Origin: an uncultured Myxococcales bacterium
GTDB taxonomy: Bacteria; UBA10199; 2-02-FULL-44-16; JAAZCA01
Assembly: GCA_964458295.1 (NCBI GenBank)
Contig: CAYWIG010000001.1
Span: forward strand, 1-27,865
Direction: 5' to 3'
Length of the DNA: 27,865 nucleotides
In this document: piece after piece, positions 12,257-27,865 of the stretch
Numbering within the stretch: the first letter of the stretch is position 1
Layout: the number at the start of each line of letters is the position of its first letter
Made by a program: the position numbers and the translations under genes
Notes under the pieces: generated by a model
What the model saw: only the letters and a program-made list of their open reading frames with translations
What the model was told of the DNA's origin: nothing
Databases searched by the model: none

Positions 12257-12952
12257 TTAATCAAGACTGTGTGATATTGGTTTCTTCCACACAGATTTGA
12301 GTCCATCGATATGTTCAAAGAGCGTCTCATCGATATTCTGCCATAGCGGATCCAGTATGAAATCAATTCCCTCACGTCTAGCCACTTTCGCTGCCGGTAC
12401 AAAATCGCTATCACCCGAAACGAGGATAATTCTATCCACGAGATTTTTATAAGCGAGAGAAGCGATATCTATTCCTATGCGAAGATCTACACCTTTCTGT
12501 CTGATATCATATTTGAAATCTACGTCTTTGAGTTGACTGAACTCTGTTCTTCCCGAAAGTAGGTTTCTTAAAGACGCATTCTTTAAAGCCCACTTATTAT
12601 CGTCCTTTAGATGGCCTAATCGGAGCGCTACTTTTCTCTTTTTTTTCAATTCCTTTATGAATATAACTTTAAATGTATATAGATTGGATTTGGCAAAATT
12701 GGTGGCTTTCCTTGATATTGGAAGATGCGCCTTCTTCGTCAATGGTAAACAGTCATAATAAAAAATCCTGTACAGTTCGTTGAGACTTTTCAATTTGAGG
12801 TGATTCCTTCCGGTGTGCATCCCGACATGAGCGAGTGACATCCTGTATAATATATCCGCTACCTTCCTTGGGTCTTTTTCGAGTGGATTGCCGAAGAAAT
12901 GGGTATAACGATACAGAAAGAACGTGCCATCAATAAGGATTGCAACTTTCAT
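12257..12952 (-). CDS. NYN-domain (PIN-like, LabA/DUF88) putative ribonuclease
   Basis: VAILIDG, QKGVDLRIGIDIA, ILVSGDSDFVPA. Start at MKVAIL (12952) with GAGGGG 8 nt upstream. AT-rich relative to its neighbours. Confidence 0.85.
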   Translation of the reverse strand: MKVAILIDGTFFLYRYTHFFGNPLEKDPRKVADILYRMSLAHVGMHTGRNHLKLKSLNELYRIFYYDCLPLTKKAHLPISRKATNFAKSNLYTFKVIFIKELKKKRKVALRLGHLKDDNKWALKNASLRNLLSGRTEFSQLKDVDFKYDIRQKGVDLRIGIDIASLAYKNLVDRIILVSGDSDFVPAAKVARREGIDFILDPLWQNIDETLFEHIDGLKSVWKKPISHSLD

Positions 12953-12971
12953 CTTAAGAACCCTCAGAAAT

Positions 12972-13051
12972 AAAAAAAAGCCCCTGGGCTCGGCCACTCC
13001 GCTATTTCAGGAGGGGCGTACTGCCAGGGGCGGTATTTCTAATTTTTCCTA
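12972..13051 (-). ncRNA. Candidate structured leader/small RNA upstream of the NYN gene
   Basis: Minus strand: gcccctgg...ccaggggc (8-bp perfect stem) enclosing gcc-c-ctcc/ggag-t-ggc, followed by 8 T; TTGACA-16-TAATCT upstream (13085-13058). Confidence 0.5.
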
Positions 13052-13259: not shown

Positions 13260-14168
13260 ATGACCGATAAGAATAAGCAAAATAAGAAGAGGGGGAGCAC
13301 TTCACGAGAACTCGTCCGCCGCGATCCTCTGCAGAGTTATATGCAGGAGGTGAAGAACTATCCGATGCTCTCATTGGAGGAGGAGCATGAGTTGGCGAAG
13401 AAATTTCATGATGAAGGTGATCTCGAAGCTGCGAAGAAGCTAGTAGCGACACACCTTCGTCTGGTTGCGAAGATTGCGATGGAGTATCGAAGCGCCTATC
13501 ACAATGTCCTGGATCTCATTCAGGAGGGCAATGTTGGTCTTCTGCAGGCGGTCAAAAACTATGATCCAAAGAAGGGTGCCAGACTCGCCCATTATGCGAC
13601 GTGGTGGATCAAATCCTACATCTTAAAGTATATTCTAGATAACTTTCGCCTGATAAAGATCGGAACCACCAAGGAGCAAAAGAAGCTCTTCTACAATCTC
13701 ATGCGCGAGAAGGAGAAGATCGAGGCGATGGGATACTATGCAACACCTGTAGAGCTATCGAAGCGCCTTGGCGTCAGCGAAAAGGCCGTAGAGGAGATGC
13801 AGAAAAGGCTTACAGAGCCGGAATATGCCCTTGAAGCCCCAATTAAAGGCGACTCTGGCGATGGTGGGGCCATTCTAAAGGACTTCCTGCCGATCGACGA
13901 GATGCCTGTCGATGATAGAATAGCTGAACAGCAGACGCAGGATATCCTGAAACAGAAGTTTAAGGAGTTTTCGAAGTCACTCGATGACAGGGAGCTCAAG
14001 ATCTTCCAGGAGCGACTCCTTTCAGAACTTCCTTTAACACTTCAGGAAATTGCAGGTGAATATGGAATATCGAAGGAGAGGGTGAGGCAATTGGAGGAGC
14101 GCCTTATTAAGCGACTTAAGAAGTTTTTTAAGGATAGTGGTATTGAGGTGGAAGCACTTAAGATGTGA
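13260..14168 (+). CDS. rpoH: RNA polymerase sigma-32 family factor
   Basis: LRLVAKIA, DLIQEGNVGL, YATWWIK, RpoH-box-like TTKEQKKLFYNL, ISKERVRQLE. Confidence 0.88.
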   Translation: MTDKNKQNKKRGSTSRELVRRDPLQSYMQEVKNYPMLSLEEEHELAKKFHDEGDLEAAKKLVATHLRLVAKIAMEYRSAYHNVLDLIQEGNVGLLQAVKNYDPKKGARLAHYATWWIKSYILKYILDNFRLIKIGTTKEQKKLFYNLMREKEKIEAMGYYATPVELSKRLGVSEKAVEEMQKRLTEPEYALEAPIKGDSGDGGAILKDFLPIDEMPVDDRIAEQQTQDILKQKFKEFSKSLDDRELKIFQERLLSELPLTLQEIAGEYGISKERVRQLEERLIKRLKKFFKDSGIEVEALKM

Positions 14169-14205
14169 TTACTATCATTATATAGATGGGGAGATAAAAC
14201 AATAA

Positions 14206-14233
14206 ACCGGACATAATCTACCTACTCAGACAT
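14206..14233. other. Left junction: hybrid dif-like site (ACCGGACATAA TCTACC TACTCAGACAT)
   Basis: The 11-bp arm reads TTATGTCCGGT on the minus strand (XerD-arm-like) and marks the exact start of the duplicated unit. Confidence 0.55.
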
Positions 14234-14277
14234 CAAACAATAAAACAGGAGTAGGGGGCGTGAGGGGCGATTTAAAC

Positions 14278-14550
14278 TCAGGCAGCTTTGCCCTTAAATA
14301 CCACTTTTTCTAATTCCTCAAGTCGCTGAAGGATCCCTTTCTTATCATCGAGAAGAATATCTCTGAGTATTTTGTTTAGCAGCGTTTGATATTTTCCGCC
14401 GCTTTTCTCAGCCATTTCACGCAGAACCTCAAGCACCTCTTCATCCAGGTAGGTCGTCACCTTGATCTTTGAGCCTTTGAGTTCTTTCTTAGAGAGTTTG
14501 GGACCCTTTATTTTCTTCATCTTATCTGGATCAGGAATTTTCTTTTTCAT
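14278..14550 (-). CDS. brnA: BrnA-type (ribbon-helix-helix) antitoxin
   Basis: KVTTYLDEEVL..GKYQTLLNKILR; GGAGG before MKKK at 14550; overlaps the toxin gene. Confidence 0.8.
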   Translation of the reverse strand: MKKKIPDPDKMKKIKGPKLSKKELKGSKIKVTTYLDEEVLEVLREMAEKSGGKYQTLLNKILRDILLDDKKGILQRLEELEKVVFKGKAA

Positions 14551-14812
14551 AATATTTCCTCCATTTCCGCCAGTTCGCCGCACCATAAATTCTTATAACC
14601 TTCTTGCGGAAGGTGTATCGTACGGTAATAATATTTCCTGAAGTAACCTTACCCACGGCATAGAATCGATCCTCTTCGGAAGAGTGCTCCTCATCTTCGA
14701 GATGTATGACCTTGGGATCAGCAAAAACCTCCATGGCCTCGCGGAAATTGACGCCGTGCTTGGCTATGTTATCCAGTTCTTTCCGCTCATCCCATTCAAA
14801 CGTATAGCTCAT
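14531..14812 (-). CDS. brnT: BrnT-type toxin
   Basis: FEWDERKELDNIAKHGVNF, HSSEEDRFYAVG, TVRYTFR..IRIYGA. Confidence 0.88.
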   Translation of the reverse strand: MSYTFEWDERKELDNIAKHGVNFREAMEVFADPKVIHLEDEEHSSEEDRFYAVGKVTSGNIITVRYTFRKKVIRIYGAANWRKWRKYYEKENS

Positions 14813-14818
14813 GATCAT

Positions 14819-14857
14819 ATTATACATATATTATATGTATATTGTCAATATATATGT
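14819..14857 (-). promoter_or_regulatory. brnTA promoter with palindromic operators
   Basis: Minus strand TTGACA (14848-14843), 18 bp, TATAAT (14824-14819); overlapping palindromes tacatat-att-atatgta and tattg-t-caata. Confidence 0.7.
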
Positions 14858-15027
14858 AGAGTGATATGAAAGGACAGTTTAATAACTACATGATATTACT
14901 TGTATAAACATAAATGTACCCATAAGGTGGTTCTAAGAAGTAATTTTGCATGTAACTTAAAAAACGAGCAACAAATTTATGGAATGTGCGATAAAGGATA
15001 CAAATGTATGAATAAGAGGAGATGATT

Positions 15028-16083
15028 ATGAGCGGAGCTACAATTAATCCAGGATTACAATTCATTAATACGGCGGGTGTACCAGGGCTTGTTAGTGGCA
15101 TACAAACCGGTATGATTCAGCCGGCACAAACACTAACTGCATTTCAAGCGGTGGGGAGTGCAATCGATACATATGCTAGTGCATTTCCGCAGGATACAAC
15201 GCTCATGGGTTTGCGTGGCAATATCAGTGGGTTGCCAGCCAATCCACCCATCACTGCCCAGGCACAGGAACAGATTCTTGGTCAGCTAACTCAACATAAG
15301 GATGATGTAGAACTGGCAGTACGCATGGCCGTCAAGATAGGGAATGTAGGTCAGGTTGCAGTTACCGGTGGTGCGGCGTTGATAAATACAGAAGCACCTT
15401 ACGATCTCGGAGCCGAGTGGAGATGGATTCCTGCCGGAACATTTCAATTTGGTTCTGCAGATGATGATCAATACGCATATGATGCTGAAAAGCCACTAAG
15501 ACAGGTGATCGTAGGTGGTTTTTTTATGCTGGATCATCCTGTGACGAATAGAGAATGGATTGCATTTCTCGAGGCTACAGGGGAAAGGGATGAGCGAGAC
15601 ATTTCAAAGAAGTTTTCGGGACTCGATCAACCGGCGGTTTTGATCAATCATCCAGAGGCAAGCCGATATGCAGAGTGGCTAGGTTCGCAAGTAAGCGCAC
15701 AGGTAGAACAAAGCGTCATCGGACGGCTCCCAACTGAGCAGGAGTGGGAGAGGGCTGCCAAGGGTCCGGACGGAAATGAATTTATAACTCCAGCAACGAG
15801 CAGGCAAGCTCACTTCGATTCGGATAGAACGAGGGCGGTTACAGATCCCGAAGCATATGTAAATGGATTTGGACTGAAGGATATGATCGGTAACGTATGG
15901 GAGTGGACATCGAGCCCATGGGCAGAGGGATCGAGTGCGTTTGTGCTTCGCGGCGCCTCTTGGGACGACTATAGTCCTCAGTCTCTGCGTGCCGCTTTTC
16001 GCAACTTCAACATTCCGGACGATCGTTTCAGCTTTATCGGCTTCCGTCCGGTGCTGGTTCCCCAGGACCCGAAAAAAAGCTGA
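15028..16083 (+). CDS. DGR target protein 1: unknown N-terminal domain plus FGE-sulfatase/C-type lectin fold with C-terminal VR
   Basis: WIPAGTFQFGS, HPVTNREW, RLPTEQEWERAA, DMIGNVWEW, RGASW..R..GFR; AGGAG before ATG 15028. Confidence 0.93.
   Translation: MSGATINPGLQFINTAGVPGLVSGIQTGMIQPAQTLTAFQAVGSAIDTYASAFPQDTTLMGLRGNISGLPANPPITAQAQEQILGQLTQHKDDVELAVRMAVKIGNVGQVAVTGGAALINTEAPYDLGAEWRWIPAGTFQFGSADDDQYAYDAEKPLRQVIVGGFFMLDHPVTNREWIAFLEATGERDERDISKKFSGLDQPAVLINHPEASRYAEWLGSQVSAQVEQSVIGRLPTEQEWERAAKGPDGNEFITPATSRQAHFDSDRTRAVTDPEAYVNGFGLKDMIGNVWEWTSSPWAEGSSAFVLRGASWDDYSPQSLRAAFRNFNIPDDRFSFIGFRPVLVPQDPKKS
15945..16065 (+). repeat. DGR variable repeat VR1
   Basis: 121-bp ungapped match to TR 19761-19881; 16 mismatches, all opposite TR adenines. 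Confidence 0.97.
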
Positions 16084-16169
16084 TGTAGCCTTTTACCCTT
16101 TGCCTTTTTACCCTTATCCGGATTTAGTATTCCCGAGAAACGATGAGTTTCACTAAGGAGCGTCGGTTT

Positions 16170-16226
16170 ATGAAGCAGGGTGCACCTCAGGTCGTAACAT
16201 CGAAGTATGATCTTCTATGTGAGTAA
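16170..16226 (+). pseudogene. avd: Truncated avd remnant
   Basis: Reads MKQGAPQVVTSKYDLLCE* versus intact MRQGAPQIITSMYDLLLY; same TAAGGAG RBS and upstream spacer as the intact avd. Confidence 0.85.
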
Positions 16227-16248
16227 TGATTGTGAGGGAATATATTAT

Positions 16249-16276
16249 ACCAGACATAATGCACCTACTCAGACAT
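16249..16276. other. Internal dif-like cassette boundary (ACCAGACATAA TGCACC TACTCAGACAT)
   Basis: Both arms identical to those of the site at 20115; the 6-bp spacer differs. Confidence 0.55.
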
Positions 16277-16319
16277 CTAGAAATATAATGGGAGTAGGGG
16301 GGCTGAGAAGCTATTTAAA

Positions 16320-16637
16320 TCAAGCCACCTTCTGTGCATCGATTTCAACTTTGAGTTTTAATCCGAGAGCTTCCAGAAGGGCAAACAGTCTGTCGAGACG
16401 TGGGTTTCCTTTTTCGGAAAGAATCCTATACGCGGTTACGCGGTTGATATGCGCGTCCTTCGCCACCTTGGACATGCTGTATGCCTCTGCTACATGCCGA
16501 AGCGCGATGAGAAGGGCAACGGGATCATCAGATTCCTCAAGCGCTGCGTTGATATAGGATGCTGCCTCGTCAGGATCCTTTAATGATTCTATTAGATATT
16601 CGTTATAATCACCGCTTCTTTTTTTTGCCTTTGCCAT
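16320..16637 (-). CDS. Addiction-module antidote protein (HTH; HigA-like, HI1420 type)
   Basis: EYLIESLKDP..YINAALE, ALRHVAEA..MSKVAKDAHINRVTAYRILSEKGNPRL. Confidence 0.88.
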   Translation of the reverse strand: MAKAKKRSGDYNEYLIESLKDPDEAASYINAALEESDDPVALLIALRHVAEAYSMSKVAKDAHINRVTAYRILSEKGNPRLDRLFALLEALGLKLKVEIDAQKVA

Positions 16638-16956
16638 AGTTTACCTCCAAATAATCGGCCCAATATTTCTTGGCCTTGTTTATATCGTTCTTTTGTGTCC
16701 GTTTCGATCCACCACATAGCAAAAGGACTATCTGTTTTCCATCCCTTCCAAAGTACACCCTGTAACCGGGACCAATATGAATTCTGAGTTCGTTTATACC
16801 TTCAGCAATTGCTTTCGCATCGCCAAATAAGCCCAGTAAAAGACGATCGATGCGTACCTTGATAACAGCGCGTGTACGTGGATCTTTCAAACCTTCCAAC
16901 CAACTCAAAAATGGACTCTTTCCACTTTCCGTTCTGTAATAACGAATATCGATCAC
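16609..16956 (-). CDS. Addiction-module killer protein (RelE/ParE/HigB family toxin)
   Basis: F..WL..LKD..RIDRL..G.FGDAK...GINELRIHIGPGYRVYF, LLLCGGSKRTQKNDI; toxin lies upstream of antitoxin; GTG start. Confidence 0.9.
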   Translation of the reverse strand: MIDIRYYRTESGKSPFLSWLEGLKDPRTRAVIKVRIDRLLLGLFGDAKAIAEGINELRIHIGPGYRVYFGRDGKQIVLLLCGGSKRTQKNDINKAKKYWADYLEVNYGKGKKKKR

Positions 16957-16963
16957 ATTAAGG

Positions 16964-17018
16964 AGTGTAGCATATATGCAACATGTGAGTCAATATGATA
17001 ATGTTGCATATAGGCAAC
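16964..17018 (-). promoter_or_regulatory. TA promoter with two palindromic operators
   Basis: Minus strand TTGACT (16993-16988), 18 bp, TGn-TACACT (16969-16964); near-palindromes GTAGCATATATGCAAC (16967-16982) and GTTGCATATAGGCAAC (17003-17018). Confidence 0.65.
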
Positions 17019-17215
17019 GAATAAGGGTGCTTGCTTGCATTCGTTTGAATTAAAAGCTATGTGACAGATAACTAGCCGATATTATAAGGTAATTTGTGCA
17101 ATTGTTCGTGCAGGATCGTGTAGGGATGATTTTTGAGGTAAATGTTGAAAAATCGAGAAACTTTTTTAGGGAATGTGCGATAAACAGATGTTATTGGAAT
17201 TATACGGAGGTAGTT

Positions 17216-18292
17216 ATGACGGGAACTTCAATTAATCCAGGATTCAATCAAGCGTTTCAATTTATTCAAGGTGTGGGTGTGCCAGGTCTTGTGAGCGGAG
17301 TGAATACGATAATGACTCCCGCACAAACGCTAACCGCATTTCAAGCAGTGGGAAGTGCGATTGATACGTACGTGACGGCGTTTCCGCAGGATGGAACATT
17401 AGTCGGTCTGCGAAGCAGCATCAGTACCTTACCTGCTACGCCGCCTATTTCGGAGCAAGCACAGGAACAAATACTTGGCCAGCTAACTCAGCATAGTGAT
17501 GATGTAGAGTTGGCGGTGCGTATGGCTATCAAGGTAAATACCGTCGGTCAAATTGCGGTCACAGGTGGAGCGGCGACAGTAAATGTCGAAGCACCATTCG
17601 ATCTCGGAGCCGAGTGGAGATGGATTCCAGAAGGATCGTTTATGTTCGGTTCGGCCGACGACGATCCGTATGCATTCAATGATGAGAAACCACAGAGGAT
17701 GATGACTGTGGGTGGCTTTTTTATGTTGGACCATCCTGTCACTAATAAAGACTGGATCGCATTTCTTGAAGCGACAGGTGGAAAGGATGCGCGAGACCTT
17801 TTAGAAAAGTTTGCGGGAATGGATCAGCCGGCGGTTCGGATTAATCATACAGAAGCGAATCAATATGCCCGATGGATCGGTGAACAATTGAGCACAAGTA
17901 AAGGTCAAGCAGTTGCAGGGCGACTTCCGACAGAGATGGAATGGGAAAGGGCGGCCAAGGGACCTGGCGGAGACGAGTTTATAATTCCTGCAACAAGAGA
18001 TCAGGCACATTTCAATGCGGATGGAAAAACGGATAGAACGAGGGCGGTTACGCATCCAGACGTATACAGAAACGGATTTGGACTGGGGGATATTGAAGGA
18101 AATGTATGGGAGTGGACATCAAGCCCATGGGCCAAAGGGTCAGGAACTTTTGTGCTTCGCGGCGCCTCTTGGATCATCTATGATCCTCGGGATCTGCGTG
18201 CCGCTTGTCGCGGCTACAGCAATCCGGGCGCTCGTGACTGCTATTTCGGCTTCCGTCCGGTGCTGGTTCCCCAGGACCCGAAAAAAAGCTGA
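17216..18292 (+). CDS. DGR target protein 2 (paralog of target 1)
   Basis: Same domain layout as target 1; GGAGG at 17206-17210 supports ATG 17216 over the track's 17096. Confidence 0.93.
   Translation: MTGTSINPGFNQAFQFIQGVGVPGLVSGVNTIMTPAQTLTAFQAVGSAIDTYVTAFPQDGTLVGLRSSISTLPATPPISEQAQEQILGQLTQHSDDVELAVRMAIKVNTVGQIAVTGGAATVNVEAPFDLGAEWRWIPEGSFMFGSADDDPYAFNDEKPQRMMTVGGFFMLDHPVTNKDWIAFLEATGGKDARDLLEKFAGMDQPAVRINHTEANQYARWIGEQLSTSKGQAVAGRLPTEMEWERAAKGPGGDEFIIPATRDQAHFNADGKTDRTRAVTHPDVYRNGFGLGDIEGNVWEWTSSPWAKGSGTFVLRGASWIIYDPRDLRAACRGYSNPGARDCYFGFRPVLVPQDPKKS
18154..18274 (+). repeat. DGR variable repeat VR2
   Basis: 121-bp ungapped match to TR; 19 mismatches, all opposite TR adenines. Confidence 0.97.
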
Positions 18293-18379
18293 TGTAAACT
18301 TTTATCCTTTGCTTTTTTACACTTATCCGGATTTTCTATTCTCCGAGAAACGATGAGCTTCACTAAGGAGCGTCGAGTC

Positions 18380-18727
18380 ATGAGGCAGGGTGCACCTCAA
18401 ATTATAACGTCGATGTATGATCTTCTCCTATATCTTGTTCCACAAGTTTCTAAATTTCCAAAATCCCAGCGTTACCTTCTCGGTGAACGGCTGGAATCCG
18501 CGTGCTTCGATGTTCTCGAACTTCTGATCTCCGCGACATATTCTCAAGAGAAGATGCAGGTACTGAATAAGGCCAACATCAGACTCGAACAGGCCCGGTA
18601 CTATGTGAGGCTATGCAAGGATCTGAAACTCTTAAGTCTCCATCGATATGAGGTTGTATCAAAAAAGGTAAACGATGTGGGTGTGCAACTCGGCGGTTGG
18701 CTGAAATCCCAGAGACGGCGCAAATGA
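18380..18727 (+). CDS. avd: DGR accessory variability determinant (bAvd-like four-helix bundle)
   Basis: KFPKSQRYLLGERL, LEQARYYVRLCKDL, VGVQLGGWLK; TAAGGAG RBS; ATGA overlap with the RT gene. Confidence 0.92.
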   Translation: MRQGAPQIITSMYDLLLYLVPQVSKFPKSQRYLLGERLESACFDVLELLISATYSQEKMQVLNKANIRLEQARYYVRLCKDLKLLSLHRYEVVSKKVNDVGVQLGGWLKSQRRRK

Positions 18728-19737
18728 GGCGACATAAAAACCTTTATAAAGAGATAGCATCGTTTAGCAACCTCCTGAAAGCTGCGCGCCTTGCCCAGCG
18801 TGGAAAGCGATATAAAACACCTACGGCACACTTCAATTACTACCTCGAAAATGAATTGTGGCGTCTACATGAAGAATTGGCCACAAAGAAATATAAACCG
18901 GGAAAATATCATCACTTTACAATATATGAGCCAAAGCAGCGCGTGATCAGCGCAGCACCATATAGAGATCGTGTTGTTCATCACGCATTGCACAACGTGC
19001 TAGAGCCGATCTTCGATCCGACTTTCATCTACGATTCGTATGCCACGAGAAAAGGGAAGGGGACGCATGCGGCTCTGGACCGCTTTCAGAGTTTTTCTCG
19101 TCGGTGTAGTTATGCACTGAAGTGCGATATTCAGAAATACTTTCCGAGCATAGATCGTCAGATTCTTATTTCTTTGATCAAAAGAAAGATTGCGTGTGAC
19201 GATACGCTTTGGCTTATGGGTCGGATACTCGAATTTCACGATGGACCGGAAGTTGCGGACAGAGGGATTCCTATAGGGAATTTGACGTCACAGTTTTTTG
19301 CGAACATCTATCTCAACGGACTGGATCACTTCATTAAGCAGGATCTTGTCTGTTCCCATTATCTTCGATACATGGATGATTTTGTGATTTTCGATAACGA
19401 TAAGGATCGCCTTTGGTATCTAAAACAGCTGATCACGGATTATGTTGAAAAACTCAGTCTTCGCCTGCATTCTGATAAATGCTGCGTTTATAAGACATCG
19501 GCAGGTGTTCCTTTTTTTGGTATGATAATCTTTCCGGAACGGCGTCGTCTCAAACGTCAGAATGTGATTAGATTTAAACGTCGATTGAGAAAGTTTCAGC
19601 GAGAATATGAAAATGGCGATGTTAGTTGGGCGCATATCAATCAATCCATTCAATCTTGGATAGGGCATGCTTTGCATGCTGAGACTGCACGTTTGAGAGG
19701 GGATATTTTGTCGAATACAGTCTTTAGAAAGGGGTGA
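18724..19737 (+). CDS. DGR reverse transcriptase
   Basis: KQRVISAAPYRDRVVHHAL, LKCDIQKYFPSI, GIPIGNLTSQFFANIYL (SQ motif typical of DGR RTs), YLRYMDDF; about 337 aa with no maturase or endonuclease domain. Confidence 0.96.
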   Translation: MRRHKNLYKEIASFSNLLKAARLAQRGKRYKTPTAHFNYYLENELWRLHEELATKKYKPGKYHHFTIYEPKQRVISAAPYRDRVVHHALHNVLEPIFDPTFIYDSYATRKGKGTHAALDRFQSFSRRCSYALKCDIQKYFPSIDRQILISLIKRKIACDDTLWLMGRILEFHDGPEVADRGIPIGNLTSQFFANIYLNGLDHFIKQDLVCSHYLRYMDDFVIFDNDKDRLWYLKQLITDYVEKLSLRLHSDKCCVYKTSAGVPFFGMIIFPERRRLKRQNVIRFKRRLRKFQREYENGDVSWAHINQSIQSWIGHALHAETARLRGDILSNTVFRKG

Positions 19738-19760
19738 TCGATCACAGTAAACGGGTTCCA

Positions 19761-19881
19761 GCTTCGCGGCGCCTCTTGGAACAACAATAATCCTCAGAAT
19801 CTGCGTGCCGCTTATCGCAACAACAACAATCCGGACGAACGTAACAACAATATCGGCTTCCGTCCGGTGCTGGTTCCCCAG
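19761..19881 (+). ncRNA. DGR template repeat (TR)
   Basis: Non-coding, 24 nt after the RT stop; 12 AAY codons in target frame; matches both VRs except at adenines. Confidence 0.96.
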
Positions 19882-20029
19882 CACCCCAAGGTGCAATCTT
19901 GCAGGCCAGAGTCCTTTTTTTTAAGGAAACGGGGAGAGTGTTCCGTAGAGTTTTCTGCGGGACGTGCCAGCGAGGGGTCCAGGTCGATCATCCCGGTTTG
20001 CCAAAATAGGTGGGCCAAAGATAGCGGGG

Positions 20030-20090
20030 CTCCATCCGTCACTCGTAACTGCATATCCAATGTAGCGAGCGTGATGGATGGGGATTTTTT
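20030..20090 (+). terminator. Long hairpin plus T-tract ending the putative DGR RNA
   Basis: ctccatccgtcac...ctgcat-atcca-atgtag...gtgatggatgggg followed by atttttt. Confidence 0.65.
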
Positions 20091-20114
20091 AAGGTTCGAC
20101 AATAGACATGTTAT

Positions 20115-20142
20115 ACCAGACATAATCTACCTACTCAGACAT
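20115..20142. other. Unit junction dif-like site (ACCAGACATAA TCTACC TACTCAGACAT)
   Basis: Sits exactly at the copy 1 / copy 2 junction. Confidence 0.55.
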
Positions 20143-20186
20143 CAAACAATAAAACAGGAGTAGGGGGCGTGAGGGGCGATTTAAAC

Positions 20187-20459
20187 TCAGGCAGCTTTGC
20201 CCTTAAATACCACTTTTTCTAATTCCTCAAGTCGCTGAAGGATCCCTTTCTTATCATCGAGAAGAATATCTCTGAGTATTTTGTTTAGCAGCGTTTGATA
20301 TTTTCCGCCGCTTTTCTCAGCCATTTCACGCAGAACCTCAAGCACCTCTTCATCCAGGTAGGTCGTCACCTTGATCTTTGAGCCTTTGAGTTCTTTCTTA
20401 GAGAGTTTGGGACCCTTTATTTTCTTCATCTTATCTGGATCAGGAATTTTCTTTTTCAT
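20187..20459 (-). CDS. brnA: BrnA-type antitoxin, copy 2
   Basis: Identical to 14278-14550. Confidence 0.8.
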   Translation of the reverse strand: MKKKIPDPDKMKKIKGPKLSKKELKGSKIKVTTYLDEEVLEVLREMAEKSGGKYQTLLNKILRDILLDDKKGILQRLEELEKVVFKGKAA

Positions 20460-20721
20460 AATATTTCCTCCATTTCCGCCAGTTCGCCGCACCATAAATT
20501 CTTATAACCTTCTTGCGGAAGGTGTATCGTACGGTAATAATATTTCCTGAAGTAACCTTACCCACGGCATAGAATCGATCCTCTTCGGAAGAGTGCTCCT
20601 CATCTTCGAGATGTATGACCTTGGGATCAGCAAAAACCTCCATGGCCTCGCGGAAATTGACGCCGTGCTTGGCTATGTTATCCAGTTCTTTCCGCTCATC
20701 CCATTCAAACGTATAGCTCAT
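20440..20721 (-). CDS. brnT: BrnT-type toxin, copy 2
   Basis: Identical to 14531-14812. Confidence 0.88.
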   Translation of the reverse strand: MSYTFEWDERKELDNIAKHGVNFREAMEVFADPKVIHLEDEEHSSEEDRFYAVGKVTSGNIITVRYTFRKKVIRIYGAANWRKWRKYYEKENS

Positions 20722-20936
20722 GATCATATTATACATATATTATATGTATATTGTCAATATATATGTAGAGTGATATGAAAGGACAGTTTAATAACTACAT
20801 GATATTACTTGTATAAACATAAATGTACCCATAAGGTGGTTCTAAGAAGTAATTTTGCATGTAACTTAAAAAACGAGCAACAAATTTATGGAATGTGCGA
20901 TAAAGGATACAAATGTATGAATAAGAGGAGATGATT

Positions 20937-21992
20937 ATGAGCGGAGCTACAATTAATCCAGGATTACAATTCATTAATACGGCGGGTGTACCAGGGCTTG
21001 TTAGTGGCATACAAACCGGTATGATTCAGCCGGCACAAACACTAACTGCATTTCAAGCGGTGGGGAGTGCAATCGATACATATGCTAGTGCATTTCCGCA
21101 GGATACAACGCTCATGGGTTTGCGTGGCAATATCAGTGGGTTGCCAGCCAATCCACCCATCACTGCCCAGGCACAGGAACAGATTCTTGGTCAGCTAACT
21201 CAACATAAGGATGATGTAGAACTGGCAGTACGCATGGCCGTCAAGATAGGGAATGTAGGTCAGGTTGCAGTTACCGGTGGTGCGGCGTTGATAAATACAG
21301 AAGCACCTTACGATCTCGGAGCCGAGTGGAGATGGATTCCTGCCGGAACATTTCAATTTGGTTCTGCAGATGATGATCAATACGCATATGATGCTGAAAA
21401 GCCACTAAGACAGGTGATCGTAGGTGGTTTTTTTATGCTGGATCATCCTGTGACGAATAGAGAATGGATTGCATTTCTCGAGGCTACAGGGGAAAGGGAT
21501 GAGCGAGACATTTCAAAGAAGTTTTCGGGACTCGATCAACCGGCGGTTTTGATCAATCATCCAGAGGCAAGCCGATATGCAGAGTGGCTAGGTTCGCAAG
21601 TAAGCGCACAGGTAGAACAAAGCGTCATCGGACGGCTCCCAACTGAGCAGGAGTGGGAGAGGGCTGCCAAGGGTCCGGACGGAAATGAATTTATAACTCC
21701 AGCAACGAGCAGGCAAGCTCACTTCGATTCGGATAGAACGAGGGCGGTTACAGATCCCGAAGCATATGTAAATGGATTTGGACTGAAGGATATGATCGGT
21801 AACGTATGGGAGTGGACATCGAGCCCATGGGCAGAGGGATCGAGTGCGTTTGTGCTTCGCGGCGCCTCTTGGGACGACTATAGTCCTCAGTCTCTGCGTG
21901 CCGCTTTTCGCAACTTCAACATTCCGGACGATCGTTTCAGCTTTATCGGCTTCCGTCCGGTGCTGGTTCCCCAGGACCCGAAAAAAAGCTGA
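20937..21992 (+). CDS. DGR target protein 1, copy 2
   Basis: Identical translation to 15028-16083. Confidence 0.93.
   Translation: MSGATINPGLQFINTAGVPGLVSGIQTGMIQPAQTLTAFQAVGSAIDTYASAFPQDTTLMGLRGNISGLPANPPITAQAQEQILGQLTQHKDDVELAVRMAVKIGNVGQVAVTGGAALINTEAPYDLGAEWRWIPAGTFQFGSADDDQYAYDAEKPLRQVIVGGFFMLDHPVTNREWIAFLEATGERDERDISKKFSGLDQPAVLINHPEASRYAEWLGSQVSAQVEQSVIGRLPTEQEWERAAKGPDGNEFITPATSRQAHFDSDRTRAVTDPEAYVNGFGLKDMIGNVWEWTSSPWAEGSSAFVLRGASWDDYSPQSLRAAFRNFNIPDDRFSFIGFRPVLVPQDPKKS
21854..21974 (+). repeat. VR1, copy 2
   Basis: Identical to 15945-16065. Confidence 0.95.
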
Positions 21993-22078
21993 TGTAGCCT
22001 TTTACCCTTTGCCTTTTTACCCTTATCCGGATTTAGTATTCCCGAGAAACGATGAGTTTCACTAAGGAGCGTCGGTTT

Positions 22079-22135
22079 ATGAAGCAGGGTGCACCTCAGG
22101 TCGTAACATCGAAGTATGATCTTCTATGTGAGTAA
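22079..22135 (+). pseudogene. avd: Truncated avd remnant, copy 2
   Basis: Identical to 16170-16226. Confidence 0.85.
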
Positions 22136-22157
22136 TGATTGTGAGGGAATATATTAT

Positions 22158-22185
22158 ACCAGACATAATGCACCTACTCAGACAT
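22158..22185. other. Internal dif-like cassette boundary, copy 2
   Basis: Identical to 16249-16276. Confidence 0.55.
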
Positions 22186-22228
22186 CTAGAAATATAATGG
22201 GAGTAGGGGGGCTGAGAAGCTATTTAAA

Positions 22229-22546
22229 TCAAGCCACCTTCTGTGCATCGATTTCAACTTTGAGTTTTAATCCGAGAGCTTCCAGAAGGGCAAACAGTCT
22301 GTCGAGACGTGGGTTTCCTTTTTCGGAAAGAATCCTATACGCGGTTACGCGGTTGATATGCGCGTCCTTCGCCACCTTGGACATGCTGTATGCCTCTGCT
22401 ACATGCCGAAGCGCGATGAGAAGGGCAACGGGATCATCAGATTCCTCAAGCGCTGCGTTGATATAGGATGCTGCCTCGTCAGGATCCTTTAATGATTCTA
22501 TTAGATATTCGTTATAATCACCGCTTCTTTTTTTTGCCTTTGCCAT
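22229..22546 (-). CDS. Addiction-module antidote protein, copy 2
   Basis: Identical to 16320-16637. Confidence 0.88.
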   Translation of the reverse strand: MAKAKKRSGDYNEYLIESLKDPDEAASYINAALEESDDPVALLIALRHVAEAYSMSKVAKDAHINRVTAYRILSEKGNPRLDRLFALLEALGLKLKVEIDAQKVA

Positions 22547-22865
22547 AGTTTACCTCCAAATAATCGGCCCAATATTTCTTGGCCTTGTTTATATCGTTCT
22601 TTTGTGTCCGTTTCGATCCACCACATAGCAAAAGGACTATCTGTTTTCCATCCCTTCCAAAGTACACCCTGTAACCGGGACCAATATGAATTCTGAGTTC
22701 GTTTATACCTTCAGCAATTGCTTTCGCATCGCCAAATAAGCCCAGTAAAAGACGATCGATGCGTACCTTGATAACAGCGCGTGTACGTGGATCTTTCAAA
22801 CCTTCCAACCAACTCAAAAATGGACTCTTTCCACTTTCCGTTCTGTAATAACGAATATCGATCAC
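22518..22865 (-). CDS. RelE/HigB-family toxin, copy 2
   Basis: Identical to 16609-16956. Confidence 0.9.
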   Translation of the reverse strand: MIDIRYYRTESGKSPFLSWLEGLKDPRTRAVIKVRIDRLLLGLFGDAKAIAEGINELRIHIGPGYRVYFGRDGKQIVLLLCGGSKRTQKNDINKAKKYWADYLEVNYGKGKKKKR

Positions 22866-23124
22866 ATTAAGGAGTGTAGCATATATGCAACATGTGAGTC
22901 AATATGATAATGTTGCATATAGGCAACGAATAAGGGTGCTTGCTTGCATTCGTTTGAATTAAAAGCTATGTGACAGATAACTAGCCGATATTATAAGGTA
23001 ATTTGTGCAATTGTTCGTGCAGGATCGTGTAGGGATGATTTTTGAGGTAAATGTTGAAAAATCGAGAAACTTTTTTAGGGAATGTGCGATAAACAGATGT
23101 TATTGGAATTATACGGAGGTAGTT

Positions 23125-24201
23125 ATGACGGGAACTTCAATTAATCCAGGATTCAATCAAGCGTTTCAATTTATTCAAGGTGTGGGTGTGCCAGGTCTTG
23201 TGAGCGGAGTGAATACGATAATGACTCCCGCACAAACGCTAACCGCATTTCAAGCAGTGGGAAGTGCGATTGATACGTACGTGACGGCGTTTCCGCAGGA
23301 TGGAACATTAGTCGGTCTGCGAAGCAGCATCAGTACCTTACCTGCTACGCCGCCTATTTCGGAGCAAGCACAGGAACAAATACTTGGCCAGCTAACTCAG
23401 CATAGTGATGATGTAGAGTTGGCGGTGCGTATGGCTATCAAGGTAAATACCGTCGGTCAAATTGCGGTCACAGGTGGAGCGGCGACAGTAAATGTCGAAG
23501 CACCATTCGATCTCGGAGCCGAGTGGAGATGGATTCCAGAAGGATCGTTTATGTTCGGTTCGGCCGACGACGATCCGTATGCATTCAATGATGAGAAACC
23601 ACAGAGGATGATGACTGTGGGTGGCTTTTTTATGTTGGACCATCCTGTCACTAATAAAGACTGGATCGCATTTCTTGAAGCGACAGGTGGAAAGGATGCG
23701 CGAGACCTTTTAGAAAAGTTTGCGGGAATGGATCAGCCGGCGGTTCGGATTAATCATACAGAAGCGAATCAATATGCCCGATGGATCGGTGAACAATTGA
23801 GCACAAGTAAAGGTCAAGCAGTTGCAGGGCGACTTCCGACAGAGATGGAATGGGAAAGGGCGGCCAAGGGACCTGGCGGAGACGAGTTTATAATTCCTGC
23901 AACAAGAGATCAGGCACATTTCAATGCGGATGGAAAAACGGATAGAACGAGGGCGGTTACGCATCCAGACGTATACAGAAACGGATTTGGACTGGGGGAT
24001 ATTGAAGGAAATGTATGGGAGTGGACATCAAGCCCATGGGCCAAAGGGTCAGGAACTTTTGTGCTTCGCGGCGCCTCTTGGATCATCTATGATCCTCGGG
24101 ATCTGCGTGCCGCTTGTCGCGGCTACAGCAATCCGGGCGCTCGTGACTGCTATTTCGGCTTCCGTCCGGTGCTGGTTCCCCAGGACCCGAAAAAAAGCTG
24201 A
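23125..24201 (+). CDS. DGR target protein 2, copy 2
   Basis: Identical translation to 17216-18292. Confidence 0.93.
   Translation: MTGTSINPGFNQAFQFIQGVGVPGLVSGVNTIMTPAQTLTAFQAVGSAIDTYVTAFPQDGTLVGLRSSISTLPATPPISEQAQEQILGQLTQHSDDVELAVRMAIKVNTVGQIAVTGGAATVNVEAPFDLGAEWRWIPEGSFMFGSADDDPYAFNDEKPQRMMTVGGFFMLDHPVTNKDWIAFLEATGGKDARDLLEKFAGMDQPAVRINHTEANQYARWIGEQLSTSKGQAVAGRLPTEMEWERAAKGPGGDEFIIPATRDQAHFNADGKTDRTRAVTHPDVYRNGFGLGDIEGNVWEWTSSPWAKGSGTFVLRGASWIIYDPRDLRAACRGYSNPGARDCYFGFRPVLVPQDPKKS
24063..24183 (+). repeat. VR2, copy 2
   Basis: Identical to 18154-18274. Confidence 0.95.
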
Positions 24202-24288
24202 TGTAAACTTTTATCCTTTGCTTTTTTACACTTATCCGGATTTTCTATTCTCCGAGAAACGATGAGCTTCACTAAGGAGCGTCGAGTC

Positions 24289-24636
24289 ATGAGGCAGGGT
24301 GCACCTCAAATTATAACGTCGATGTATGATCTTCTCCTATATCTTGTTCCACAAGTTTCTAAATTTCCAAAATCCCAGCGTTACCTTCTCGGTGAACGGC
24401 TGGAATCCGCGTGCTTCGATGTTCTCGAACTTCTGATCTCCGCGACATATTCTCAAGAGAAGATGCAGGTACTGAATAAGGCCAACATCAGACTCGAACA
24501 GGCCCGGTACTATGTGAGGCTATGCAAGGATCTGAAACTCTTAAGTCTCCATCGATATGAGGTTGTATCAAAAAAGGTAAACGATGTGGGTGTGCAACTC
24601 GGCGGTTGGCTGAAATCCCAGAGACGGCGCAAATGA
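24289..24636 (+). CDS. avd: Avd, copy 2
   Basis: Identical to 18380-18727. Confidence 0.92.
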   Translation: MRQGAPQIITSMYDLLLYLVPQVSKFPKSQRYLLGERLESACFDVLELLISATYSQEKMQVLNKANIRLEQARYYVRLCKDLKLLSLHRYEVVSKKVNDVGVQLGGWLKSQRRRK

Positions 24637-25646
24637 GGCGACATAAAAACCTTTATAAAGAGATAGCATCGTTTAGCAACCTCCTGAAAGCTGCGCGCCT
24701 TGCCCAGCGTGGAAAGCGATATAAAACACCTACGGCACACTTCAATTACTACCTCGAAAATGAATTGTGGCGTCTACATGAAGAATTGGCCACAAAGAAA
24801 TATAAACCGGGAAAATATCATCACTTTACAATATATGAGCCAAAGCAGCGCGTGATCAGCGCAGCACCATATAGAGATCGTGTTGTTCATCACGCATTGC
24901 ACAACGTGCTAGAGCCGATCTTCGATCCGACTTTCATCTACGATTCGTATGCCACGAGAAAAGGGAAGGGGACGCATGCGGCTCTGGACCGCTTTCAGAG
25001 TTTTTCTCGTCGGTGTAGTTATGCACTGAAGTGCGATATTCAGAAATACTTTCCGAGCATAGATCGTCAGATTCTTATTTCTTTGATCAAAAGAAAGATT
25101 GCGTGTGACGATACGCTTTGGCTTATGGGTCGGATACTCGAATTTCACGATGGACCGGAAGTTGCGGACAGAGGGATTCCTATAGGGAATTTGACGTCAC
25201 AGTTTTTTGCGAACATCTATCTCAACGGACTGGATCACTTCATTAAGCAGGATCTTGTCTGTTCCCATTATCTTCGATACATGGATGATTTTGTGATTTT
25301 CGATAACGATAAGGATCGCCTTTGGTATCTAAAACAGCTGATCACGGATTATGTTGAAAAACTCAGTCTTCGCCTGCATTCTGATAAATGCTGCGTTTAT
25401 AAGACATCGGCAGGTGTTCCTTTTTTTGGTATGATAATCTTTCCGGAACGGCGTCGTCTCAAACGTCAGAATGTGATTAGATTTAAACGTCGATTGAGAA
25501 AGTTTCAGCGAGAATATGAAAATGGCGATGTTAGTTGGGCGCATATCAATCAATCCATTCAATCTTGGATAGGGCATGCTTTGCATGCTGAGACTGCACG
25601 TTTGAGAGGGGATATTTTGTCGAATACAGTCTTTAGAAAGGGGTGA
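24633..25646 (+). CDS. DGR reverse transcriptase, copy 2
   Basis: Identical to 18724-19737. Confidence 0.96.
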   Translation: MRRHKNLYKEIASFSNLLKAARLAQRGKRYKTPTAHFNYYLENELWRLHEELATKKYKPGKYHHFTIYEPKQRVISAAPYRDRVVHHALHNVLEPIFDPTFIYDSYATRKGKGTHAALDRFQSFSRRCSYALKCDIQKYFPSIDRQILISLIKRKIACDDTLWLMGRILEFHDGPEVADRGIPIGNLTSQFFANIYLNGLDHFIKQDLVCSHYLRYMDDFVIFDNDKDRLWYLKQLITDYVEKLSLRLHSDKCCVYKTSAGVPFFGMIIFPERRRLKRQNVIRFKRRLRKFQREYENGDVSWAHINQSIQSWIGHALHAETARLRGDILSNTVFRKG

Positions 25647-25669
25647 TCGATCACAGTAAACGGGTTCCA

Positions 25670-25790
25670 GCTTCGCGGCGCCTCTTGGAACAACAATAAT
25701 CCTCAGAATCTGCGTGCCGCTTATCGCAACAACAACAATCCGGACGAACGTAACAACAATATCGGCTTCCGTCCGGTGCTGGTTCCCCAG
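25670..25790 (+). ncRNA. DGR template repeat, copy 2
   Basis: Identical to 19761-19881. Confidence 0.96.
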
Positions 25791-25938
25791 CACCCCAAGG
25801 TGCAATCTTGCAGGCCAGAGTCCTTTTTTTTAAGGAAACGGGGAGAGTGTTCCGTAGAGTTTTCTGCGGGACGTGCCAGCGAGGGGTCCAGGTCGATCAT
25901 CCCGGTTTGCCAAAATAGGTGGGCCAAAGATAGCGGGG

Positions 25939-25999
25939 CTCCATCCGTCACTCGTAACTGCATATCCAATGTAGCGAGCGTGATGGATGGGGATTTTTT
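25939..25999 (+). terminator. Hairpin plus T-tract, copy 2
   Basis: Identical to 20030-20090. Confidence 0.65.
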
Positions 26000-26023
26000 A
26001 AGGTTCGACAATAGACATGTTAT

Positions 26024-26051
26024 ACCAGACATAATATATCTTATACGTCTT
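26024..26051 (-). other. Complete dif-like XerC/XerD site (minus strand AAGACGTATAA GATATA TTATGTCTGGT)
   Basis: 11-6-11 layout with ATAA-n6-TTAT core; 17/28 identical to E. coli dif by my alignment; marks the island's right end. Confidence 0.65.
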
Positions 26052-26144: not shown

Positions 26145-27865
26145 ATGAGTAAGGCAGCAGCGACCGTGATTGATCTAAAAAAGCCTGATAATACAGGTGA
26201 TTATGATACATCGGGGCTCTCAAAGGAGCTAGCGAAGACGATCTCCCTTTTCATGTCACACCAGCGTTCAGACGGATATTGGTGGTACACCCTTGAGGCC
26301 AACGAGACGATCGGTACCGAATTTATCCTCCTGATGCACTATCTGGGCATGGTCGATAGTGAGATGTTGGAAGGCATCAAGAATCGAATACTCGATGTCC
26401 AACGCTCCAACGGCACCTGGGCGATCTATCATGACGGTCCGCCGGAGCTTTCGACAACTATAGAATGCTACTGGGCCCTTAGAATCGCTGGCGTCCCACC
26501 GGATGCTGAGAATATGGTCAAGGCACGTCATTACATCCTCGAACATGGCGGAATCGAAAAGGCACGCGTATTTACGAAGATCCATCTTGCGATGTTCGGC
26601 ATAGTACCCTGGAGCGCATGTCCAAACATGCCTAGCTGGTTTATCCACTTCCCACGATGGTTTTCTTTTAACATCTACGAATTCTCTAGTTGGGCGCGGG
26701 CTACGATCGTACCGCTCCTGATCTTCATGTCGGTCAAGAAGACGAAGAAAGCTCCGAAGAATATAATGCTGGAGGAGCTATTCTGTCATCCACCGGATCA
26801 TAGGTTCTACACATATCCGGCGGATCATGATCTATTCTCCTGGGAGAGCTTCTTCATCTATTCAGATAAAGCTTTAAAGATTTTTGATAAAATACCTTTA
26901 AAGCCACTACGTAAACTCTCGATAAATAAGTGTGCAAAGTGGACTTGGGAACATGTCGCAAAGACTGAGGACATATATCCGGCACTCGCTTACTGTGCGC
27001 TCGCATTCAAGGCCATGGATTACAGCAATGAATCTCCGCAGATCAAGAAACCCTTCGAGGCCTTAAAGATGTTCCAACAGCGTTATGCGACTTTAGATGT
27101 CCCCGCCTGTCCGGATGAAATCAAGGATGACACAAAGACCGTTCCATCAAAACTTCGTGAGATCGGAATCGACCCGCTTGTAAAACGAAGCGATGGTCAC
27201 AGGATCCATCAACAGTGTTGTATATCTCCACTCTGGGACACGCCTTGGATGGTCATGTCGCTTTTGGAAGCGGGTGTTCCGAAAGATGATCCCGCCCTAC
27301 TCCGTGCTGGACGTTGGCTGATCGGGAAGCAGATAAGGGAGACGCGCGGTGACTGGTCTATTAAAAATAGAAAGGCGAAACCTGGCGGTTGGGCGTTTGA
27401 ATTTGAAAATGACTACTTTCCAGACGTAGATGATACGATTGAAATCCTAAGCGTCATCGATCGCCTGGATATTCCCGAAGATGAGAAGAAGGAAACGGTT
27501 AAGCTCGGTTTGGACTGGCTGCTTTCGATGCAGAATTACGATGGTGGCTGGGGCGCTTTCGATACGGATCAAAAGCAGGAGCTGGTCATTCGAATCCCAT
27601 TCTCCGATCACAAGGCGTGTATGGATCCGTCGACTCCGGATATAACTGGTAGAATGATTGAGTACCTTTCAACCCAGGGTTACGACCGAAATCATCCCGT
27701 AATCAAACGTGCACTGAATTTTATATGGCAAACACAAGAGAAGTTCGGCGGATGGTTCGGTAGATGGGGAGTGAATTACCTCTATGGGACATGGAATGTT
27801 CTCATGGGACTTGGCGCACTCGGCTTCGATCCATCCGATGATAGAATATCCAGGGCGCTTAACTG
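26145..27865 (+). CDS. shc: Squalene-hopene cyclase, 3' partial (absent from the ORF track, probably because there is no stop in the window)
   Basis: GGAGG then ATG 26145; translates to QRSDGYWWYTLEANE, GGWAFEFENDYFPDVDDT (DXDD motif), QNYDGGWGAFD, WFGRWGVNYLYGTW. Confidence 0.93.
   Translation, partial: MSKAAATVIDLKKPDNTGDYDTSGLSKELAKTISLFMSHQRSDGYWWYTLEANETIGTEFILLMHYLGMVDSEMLEGIKNRILDVQRSNGTWAIYHDGPPELSTTIECYWALRIAGVPPDAENMVKARHYILEHGGIEKARVFTKIHLAMFGIVPWSACPNMPSWFIHFPRWFSFNIYEFSSWARATIVPLLIFMSVKKTKKAPKNIMLEELFCHPPDHRFYTYPADHDLFSWESFFIYSDKALKIFDKIPLKPLRKLSINKCAKWTWEHVAKTEDIYPALAYCALAFKAMDYSNESPQIKKPFEALKMFQQRYATLDVPACPDEIKDDTKTVPSKLREIGIDPLVKRSDGHRIHQQCCISPLWDTPWMVMSLLEAGVPKDDPALLRAGRWLIGKQIRETRGDWSIKNRKAKPGGWAFEFENDYFPDVDDTIEILSVIDRLDIPEDEKKETVKLGLDWLLSMQNYDGGWGAFDTDQKQELVIRIPFSDHKACMDPSTPDITGRMIEYLSTQGYDRNHPVIKRALNFIWQTQEKFGGWFGRWGVNYLYGTWNVLMGLGALGFDPSDDRISRALN

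Follow-up and report, generated by a model that had tools for sequence, protein, structure and literature searches.

An island that encodes no recombinase of its own lies between a sigma-32 gene (rpoH) and a squalene-hopene cyclase gene (shc) in a marine MAG, and the locus raises the question of how such an element reached this position and by which machinery. To our knowledge, IMEXs are understood almost wholly from Vibrio phages and a few pathogen islands, all of which exploit the XerC side of dif. The first-pass annotation of the locus had proposed that joining the two flanks of the island rebuilds an intact, empty dif-like site, and that one strand exchange next to non-homologous spacers had left a functional site at the right end. 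We examined this proposal in the window, i.e., the whole stretch of DNA that was analysed, which corresponds to the entire 27,865-bp contig of the MAG (2.13 Mb, 78.7% complete), and in related genomes and assemblies; the data consist throughout of MAGs and low-depth metagenome contigs. Judged from sequence comparison, an integrase-less modular element, composed of toxin-antitoxin pairs and a two-target diversity-generating retroelement (DGR) in a 5,909-bp unit, very probably entered dif by host Xer recombination, in the manner of an IMEX.

Organization of the Element

The element occupies positions 14217-26034 and reads as two copies of 5,909 bp (14217-20125 and 20126-26034), with 0 differences over 5,909 nt. 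Each copy is built of two modules, A and B, and the pair of copies is framed by the host genes:

13260-14168, + strand: rpoH-type sigma-32 gene, left host flank (Pfam Sigma70 r1.2/r2/r4, NCBIfam sigma-32); syntenic with the site and shc in relatives
14217-16259, + strand: module A, first copy (Pfam)
14278-14586, - strand: BrnA, module A (Pfam)
14531-14827, - strand: BrnT, module A (Pfam)
15022-16083, + strand: FGE-sulfatase-type DGR target 1, module A (Pfam), with VR1 at 15945-16073
16260-20125, + strand: module B, first copy (Pfam)
16320-16637, - strand: HigA-like antitoxin, module B (Pfam)
16609-16956, - strand: Gp49/HigB-like toxin, module B (Pfam)
17096-18292, + strand: DGR target 2 (FGE-type), module B (Pfam), with VR2 at 18154-18282
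18353-18727, + strand: Avd, module B (Pfam bAvd)
18697-19737, + strand: reverse transcriptase (RT), module B (Pfam RVT_1)
19761-19889, + strand: TR, module B
20126-26034, + strand: second copy, modules A and B, 100% identical to the first, with its own internal site at 22158-22185
26145-27863, running off the contig end, + strand: shc, right host flank (Pfam SQHop_cyclase N and C domains); syntenic in relatives

By Pfam and NCBIfam profile scans, the ORFs of the element fall into the BrnT/BrnA, HigBA-like, FGE-type target, Avd and RT families only; no recombinase, integrase or transposase was found among them, nor, unlike in filamentous-phage IMEXs, were any phage or replication genes found in the element. 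Outside the element, the interval from an AmiA-like amidase gene to rpoH holds a gene for an NYN-domain nuclease in the opposite orientation (12257-12997, - strand).

The element carries a two-target DGR, complete with RT, Avd, TR and two VRs, in which 16 of the 18 mismatches between VR1 and TR, and 19 of the 21 between VR2 and TR, fall at TR adenines. Within VR2, the stretch 18173-18218 varies between sequencing runs at many positions, one version being found in X1 and X2 and another in X3, and these differences suggest that in the natural population target 2 is being actively diversified by the DGR. Note also that 84 nt of module A, just before its boundary site (16133-16216), are 87% identical to the region of module B where avd starts (18343-18426). 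In view of this remnant, module A looks like a full DGR module that lost avd, RT and TR.

Dif-Like Sites in the Window

Five dif-like sites are present, one of them being the site that the first-pass annotation had placed at the right end of the island:

14206-14233, + strand: attL hybrid, with host-flank arm ACCGGACATAA, element spacer TCTACC and degenerate element arm TACTCAGACAT
14234-14290, + strand: candidate accessory sequence of ~55 nt beside the degenerate arm (alignment of module A, module B and the module of the relative G001; also in L163, a locus from a third host)
16249-16276, + strand: internal site at the boundary of modules A and B, ACCAGACATAA TGCACC TACTCAGACAT
20115-20142, + strand: element end-to-start junction (attP-like), ACCAGACATAA TCTACC TACTCAGACAT
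22158-22185, + strand: internal site of the second copy, ACCAGACATAA TGCACC TACTCAGACAT
26024-26051, + strand: attR, the present chromosomal dif, with XerD-type arm ACCAGACATAA, spacer TATATC and XerC-type arm TTATACGTCTT

Allowing up to one mismatch, the window contains 7 occurrences of the arm ACCRGACATAA where 0.79 are expected, and 0 of 100 shuffles reach this number; the exact copies of the arm, five in number, are all on the + strand, at module boundaries and in direct orientation. The ~55 nt that follow the degenerate arm are kept across four module types with unrelated neighbouring genes (14203-14290 and 16245-16331 in the window, L013 5760-5850, and L163). TTAT stands directly before each element-borne conserved arm and is not found before the host-flank copies. 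The 28-mer of attR is present in a single copy in the whole 2.13-Mb MAG, and its junction is backed by a contig reading from the end of the element into the shc flank. The sequences quoted by the first-pass annotation were all recovered at their coordinates, and splicing 14206-14217 to 26036-26051 does yield, as its author wrote, the 28-bp ACCGGACATAATATATCTTATACGTCTT in an 11-6-11 arrangement.

The Right-Hand Site Is the Chromosomal dif

At dif, XerC and XerD resolve chromosomes that have become joined to each other. If the island was inserted into dif, the same site should be recognizable in relatives. An arm-N6-arm search with up to 3 mismatches gave a single match per genome in 11 of 40 relatives, and likewise in the source genome (G000); relatives of other genera and families carry the site once per genome, with 1-4 differences. 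In G010, G016, G018 and G011, which represent other genera and two families, it lies directly between rpoH and shc. G005 has an empty site too, but with one extra coding stretch between rpoH and the site. The island is absent from all of these genomes. The first-pass annotation had named a different sequence between rpoH and shc in island-free relatives as the observation that would refute it; this was not observed, and what these relatives have there is a 28-bp site that differs from the spliced one at 2-4 positions. The empty site of G010, ACCAGACATAA TATTTC TTATACGTCTT, is 1 position apart from attR, and the spacer TATATC is also found in the empty sites of G005, G016 and G018.

As is typical of the replication terminus, the GC skew switches from positive to negative at the site (left/right +0.068/-0.074 in G010, +0.051/-0.025 in G005 and +0.113/-0.125 in G013) and has the values +0.135/-0.053 near the site in G001, as measured on the contigs G010:C13, G005:C76, G013:C1 and G001:C106, the window itself having only 1.8 kb to the right of the site. 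The source genome encodes a XerC (343 bits, for an NCBIfam cut-off of 335), a XerD-like protein (311 bits, the gene being truncated at a contig end) and an FtsK_gamma domain (111 bits), and the relatives have two Xer paralogues each. Taken together, the occurrence of one copy per genome, the synteny with rpoH and shc, the switch in GC skew and the presence of XerC, XerD-like and FtsK-gamma genes establish that 26024-26051 is the chromosomal dif of this lineage, of which natural empty sites exist.

Several observations were made around these sites. The 870 bp that separate rpoH from dif in G005 were considered as a possible element remnant and rejected as such: they contain no second dif-like site and look like a resident coding gene. 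In G016 (L004 1436-1446) and G011 (L009 ~1457-1467), which belong to different families, an inverted XerD-type arm plus TATA is found ~35-55 nt upstream of the empty dif, and could be left over from a past Xer event or provide XerD with an additional place to bind. Outside this lineage, at least nine Nitrospira loci among the matches listed (L043, L057, L061, L069, L085, L095, L098, L118 and L132) read ACCAGACATAA TGAAGA TTATGAGGCCA. This is probably the dif of the Nitrospira MAGs, with a conserved arm common to both lineages and a different second arm.

Geometry of the Crossover

The two ends of the island are linked differently to the site. At attL the spacer of the element is joined to the degenerate arm, and at attR the host-type spacer TATATC is joined to the host arm, in the source genome as well as in G001. 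The island of G001, a member of the same genus, is a different, 2.5-kb module that consists of a Fic/DOC-wHTH gene and an FGE-type gene, without RT; its attL is ACCAGACATAA TCATGC TACTAAGACAT and its attR ACCAGACATAA TATATC TTATACGTCCT. The third host, represented by L163 and by its attL side only, has ACCAGACATAA TCATCC TACCTCGACAT after rpoH. The geometry of the two complete islands indicates that strands were joined inside the shared ACCAGACATAAT, at the edge of the conserved arm. Two statements of the first-pass annotation are supported here: the hybrid junctions agree with a crossover inside the shared ACCRGACATAAT at the edge of the spacer, a geometry repeated by the G001 island, and the site left at the right end, attR, is a canonical dif. 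The arrays of IMEXs in V. cholerae build up by a similar regeneration of dif on one side (PMC9226527).

A single strand exchange and a full exchange followed by segregation account equally well for the hybrid junctions. Next to the conserved arm, spacer identity amounts to one base, a T (TCTACC/TGCACC vs TATATC), and strand swapping usually uses 2-3 nt of spacer identity, more than the single T available here. The second arm of the element agrees with its host counterpart in only 5 of 11 bases, which makes binding of XerC to the element doubtful. With respect to cargo, the Fic/DOC protein of G001, which has a C-terminal winged helix (L013 5827-6831, - strand), takes the slot of the BrnTA and HigBA-like pairs, and the module contains a DGR-type FGE target, RT, Avd and TR being absent from it.

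The first-pass annotation had singled out the left arm as the only one with G at position 4, and the G at 14209 is indeed the sole arm difference among the five sites. It had also described the right-hand arm ACCAGACATAA as element-type; the sequence is right, and the label is not, since the sites of 9 out of 10 relatives carry ACCAGACATAA, with A at this position. This arm is the canonical one of the lineage, and the G is consequently the unusual state. The G is real and fixed in the population sampled, as the attL junction that includes it was also found in L154, L155, L160, L161 and L166 and in Logan contigs of X1 and X2. It may be an ancestral host dif variant kept in attL, or a later mutation in an attL that is no longer under selection; it belongs to the outer part of the arm, where conservation is lower than further inside (PMC9226527). 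The preservation of an ancestral variant is the likely reading, by the logic applied in the recent reconstruction of the ancestral difI sites of V. cholerae.

The exact G-bearing empty 28-mer, which the first-pass annotation regarded as the decisive finding, was absent from JGI metagenome contigs and from the contigs of four runs. The search of the JGI contigs for the G-type arm (ACCGGACATAAT...) returned a single match, a chance one within a coding region, and the Logan contigs of the four runs over 13300-20160, at a depth of ~4-6, gave no empty-site contig and no explicit go-back joint, with branch-point breaks only. The placement of the crossover is independent of the G, because the two complete islands (G000 and G001) have identical linkage of spacer and arm.

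Which Side of dif Was Used

The polarity of the event depends on which arm is bound by XerD. Read on the minus strand, the conserved arm is TTATGTCTGGT; it starts with TTATGT, and its inner half matches the XerD motif of V. cholerae, TTATGTTAAAW (bioRxiv 10.64898/2026.06.12.731946). Among 10 relatives, 9 have it unchanged, and the other arm varies at its outer positions, which corresponds to the pattern of XerD vs XerC arms, the XerD arm being the more conserved in all phyla (PMC3025954). The Nitrospira MAGs combine the same conserved arm with a different partner. On the basis of motif and conservation the conserved arm is probably the XerD arm. The element would then represent a mirror-image variant, since it keeps a XerD-type arm perfect, whereas the known IMEXs, namely CTX, VGJ, TLC, GGI and EludIMEX-1, all keep homology on the XerC side and diverge on the XerD side (PMC5357621, PMC3025954).

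The best-surviving alternative is the same IMEX-type insertion with conventional polarity, where ACCAGACATAA would be the XerC arm and a XerC-first, VGJ-type exchange would be resolved by replication. It agrees with the homology pattern of all characterised IMEXs; moreover, once the arms are swapped, the geometry at this locus is exactly that of VGJ, and the XerD assignment made here is by analogy. Nevertheless, the TTATGT start, the invariance of the conserved arm beside a variable partner and the different partner in the Nitrospira MAGs all count against this polarity, which we consider unlikely. Should the XerD assignment be wrong, the locus would display ordinary VGJ-type geometry.

XerD normally needs FtsK or a Xaf-type activator. 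No DUF3653/Xaf-like protein was found in the element by the Pfam scans. A 103-aa ORF (19812-20123, - strand) was considered as a Xaf-like activator and discarded, since Pfam assigns it to no family, its span overlaps that of TR, and neither module A nor the module of G001 has an equivalent. Three features are not accounted for by the mirror-image reading: the lack of a Xaf-like activator in the element, a spacer identity of only one base (T) beside the conserved arm, and the ~55-nt stretch that all four module types keep next to the degenerate arm.

Source of the Recombinase

The absence of a recombinase from the element, together with the existence of the same site in an empty state in relatives, makes it most likely that the island borrowed the XerC/XerD of its host. 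Alternatively, a dedicated recombinase could be encoded elsewhere, with the 12-bp identity ACCAGACATAAT acting as the crossover core and dif merely serving as target. A candidate exists on contig C261 of the source genome (L018 1453-2388, - strand), where a third Xer-family recombinase of 311 aa is encoded, whose best match in 21 relatives is 40% identical, and the MAG is 78.7% complete. However, G001 carries an island of the same geometry with only two Xer paralogues and no orthologue of the C261 gene, no element-type site is present on the contigs of other recombinases, C261 included, and the sites keep the full 11-6-11 layout of dif. As G001 has an island without the orthologue and C261 lacks an element-type site, the C261 recombinase was rejected as the main explanation, and a dedicated enzyme of any kind appears quite improbable; the C261 protein may belong to another mobile element. 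An integron cassette array was also considered. Integron arrays consist of attC sites with an adjacent IntI integrase and attI. This possibility was rejected, as the window contains no recombinase gene, the sites have the 11-6-11 layout of dif and the recombinases of the genome score below the integron-integrase cut-off.

Mobility and the Circular or Tandem Form

The mobility of an IMEX shows in its presence or absence between hosts and in a form with joined ends. In L163, the start of module A is 96.4% identical to that in the window, and the adjacent rpoH shows 78% DNA and 85% protein identity. The end-to-start junction is spanned in at least five other assemblies (L157, L158, L159, L164 and L165), which are separate, although some may share source samples. 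Two of the contigs, L157 (6,028 nt, with a terminal overlap of 119 nt) and L158 (5,964 nt, with an overlap of 55 nt), can each be closed to a loop of 5,909 bp. Breaks in contigs fall exactly at positions 14210 and 20126, and the ENA scaffolds L154 and L155 end at 14264, the end of the first 55-mer past the G/A position, as expected if the assembly graph forks between attL and the end-to-start junction. The loop contigs and the junction-spanning contigs demonstrate that a circular or tandem form of the element is real.

The number of integrated copies is a separate matter. What is assembled as a tandem pair may instead consist of a single integrated copy and a circle, with the assembler making a single pass round the loop, as both arrangements lead to the same path in a short-read assembly. 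The ratio of element to flank depth, ~1.4-1.5, is ambiguous between tandem and circle. The junction 60-mer, a weak indicator with only two sampled words, was found with both words in X4 and X6 and with one in X1, X2 and X11. An assembly artefact is excluded for the junctions but may affect the copy number.

A search of 93 genomes of the class found element-type sites in this genus alone, and viral contigs gave no matches to the element-type site. According to another view, the island is ancestral at this locus, a resident array of cassettes in decay that relatives have lost through deletions between its repeated sites. This view draws on the direct arm repeats, which would permit deletions, and on the confinement of element-type sites to one genus, but is hardly credible: in a host that shows 78% identity in the flanking rpoH, the module reaches 96.4%; G001 has a different cargo in the same slot; the end-to-start junctions of other assemblies allow a 5,909-bp loop to be closed; and empty sites span several families.

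A Model for Insertion by Host Xer Recombination

Under the preferred reading, in which the element was inserted by the Xer system of its host, a circular element would carry ACCAGACATAA-TCTACC-TACTCAGACAT, in which the conserved dif arm is perfect, the spacer foreign and the second arm degenerate. The host XerC/XerD would presumably catalyze the joining of strands where the conserved arm meets the spacer. The attL site would thus receive the host arm, the element spacer and the degenerate arm, and the perfect arm of the element would become joined to the host spacer and the host second arm, rebuilding a canonical dif at the right end. With the conserved arm assigned to XerD, the exchange would take place at the XerD cleavage position, as a mirror image of the known IMEXs. 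The event would probably proceed by one strand exchange followed by resolution through replication, and the G at 14209 would correspond to the ancestral host variant.

We tentatively extend this model to a family of Xer-dependent cassettes, a generalization that is possible, if somewhat less likely than its opposite. Such cassettes would combine an addiction module and a DGR target, with or without Avd-RT-TR, and would integrate at the XerD side of dif through a site whose XerD arm is perfect and whose XerC arm is degenerate, with a private spacer between them and the conserved ~55-nt accessory sequence alongside. If so, a DGR and stripped target cassettes that it serves in trans would spread horizontally and stack at the terminus. 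A wider DGR-at-dif family was also looked for and rejected, as the contigs of RT relatives at 57-67% identity (L167, L169 and L170) have no dif-like flanking sites. Base-pair resolution has been reached for the attachment site, the empty site and the junctions, which makes in vitro recombination directly testable.

Comparison With Known Systems

Several of the features by which IMEXs are recognised were found at this locus: exact insertion at dif, flanks formed by directly oriented dif and dif-like sites, no integrase or transposase, presence or absence depending on the host, and a form with joined ends; dependence on XerC/XerD is presumed. The present picture of IMEXs would be widened by a DGR-carrying element that is not a phage and comes from an uncultured marine lineage. 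If the XerD-side reading is true, Xer hijacking works from either side of dif, which raises the question of how XerD is activated or XerC recruited.

With regard to its cargo, the element resembles DGRs with FGE-sulfatase/C-type-lectin-fold targets in its RT, Avd, TR, two VRs and adenine-specific mismatches. DGRs occur in phages, plasmids and chromosomes. Among the papers listed by a literature search, none linked a DGR to Xer/dif mobilisation, and DGRs would gain here a route of horizontal transfer that was not found in the literature searched.

Sites of pdif modules alternate in orientation and are mainly found on plasmids. The pdif modules of Acinetobacter are similar to the present element in their small cargo, often a toxin-antitoxin system, in being bounded by 28-bp Xer sites and in their varied contexts (PMC7399989, PMC12907356). 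Differently from these modules, the present array stands at the chromosomal dif and contains five direct repeats; neither alternating orientation nor a plasmid location was found, all five sites being on the + strand of a chromosomal contig.

GGI and EludIMEX-1 share with the element a non-phage cargo, the lack of an integrase, and flanks consisting of dif and a degenerate dif-like site in direct orientation (PMC5357621). They differ from it in having a homologous XerC side and a divergent XerD arm, in their size of 29-57 kb, and in showing no modular internal sites or circle/tandem junction of the kind described above.

The satellite phage TLCphi is a known case in which strand exchange is initiated on the XerD side, and it changes the arm variant of the ancestral dif (difA to dif1), in parallel with the G arm in attL and the A arm in dif at this locus (PMC9226527; bioRxiv 10.64898/2026.06.12.731946). 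Its attP has a good XerC arm, spacer homology and a degenerate XerD arm, and the phage encodes XafT, whereas the present element has a perfect XerD-type arm together with a divergent spacer and XerC-type arm. The combination that defines the TLC type, a degenerate XerD arm, a homologous spacer and XafT (DUF3653), is thus not found here.

Close parallels are also provided by VGJphi and CTXphi of Vibrio cholerae, which likewise lack an integrase, target the chromosomal dif, have a partly non-homologous spacer, regenerate dif on one side and can build arrays (PMC9226527, PMC5357621). These are filamentous phages that share with the host the XerC arm and the XerC-side part of the spacer and are exchanged at the XerC side, whereas the present element carries toxin-antitoxin pairs and a DGR, shares what is by analogy a XerD-type arm, and has its crossover at the edge of that arm; given this assignment by analogy, the shared XerC arm and XerC-side crossover of the CTX/VGJ type are not observed. 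In both cases, the non-homologous part of the spacer leads one to expect a single strand exchange that is completed by replication.
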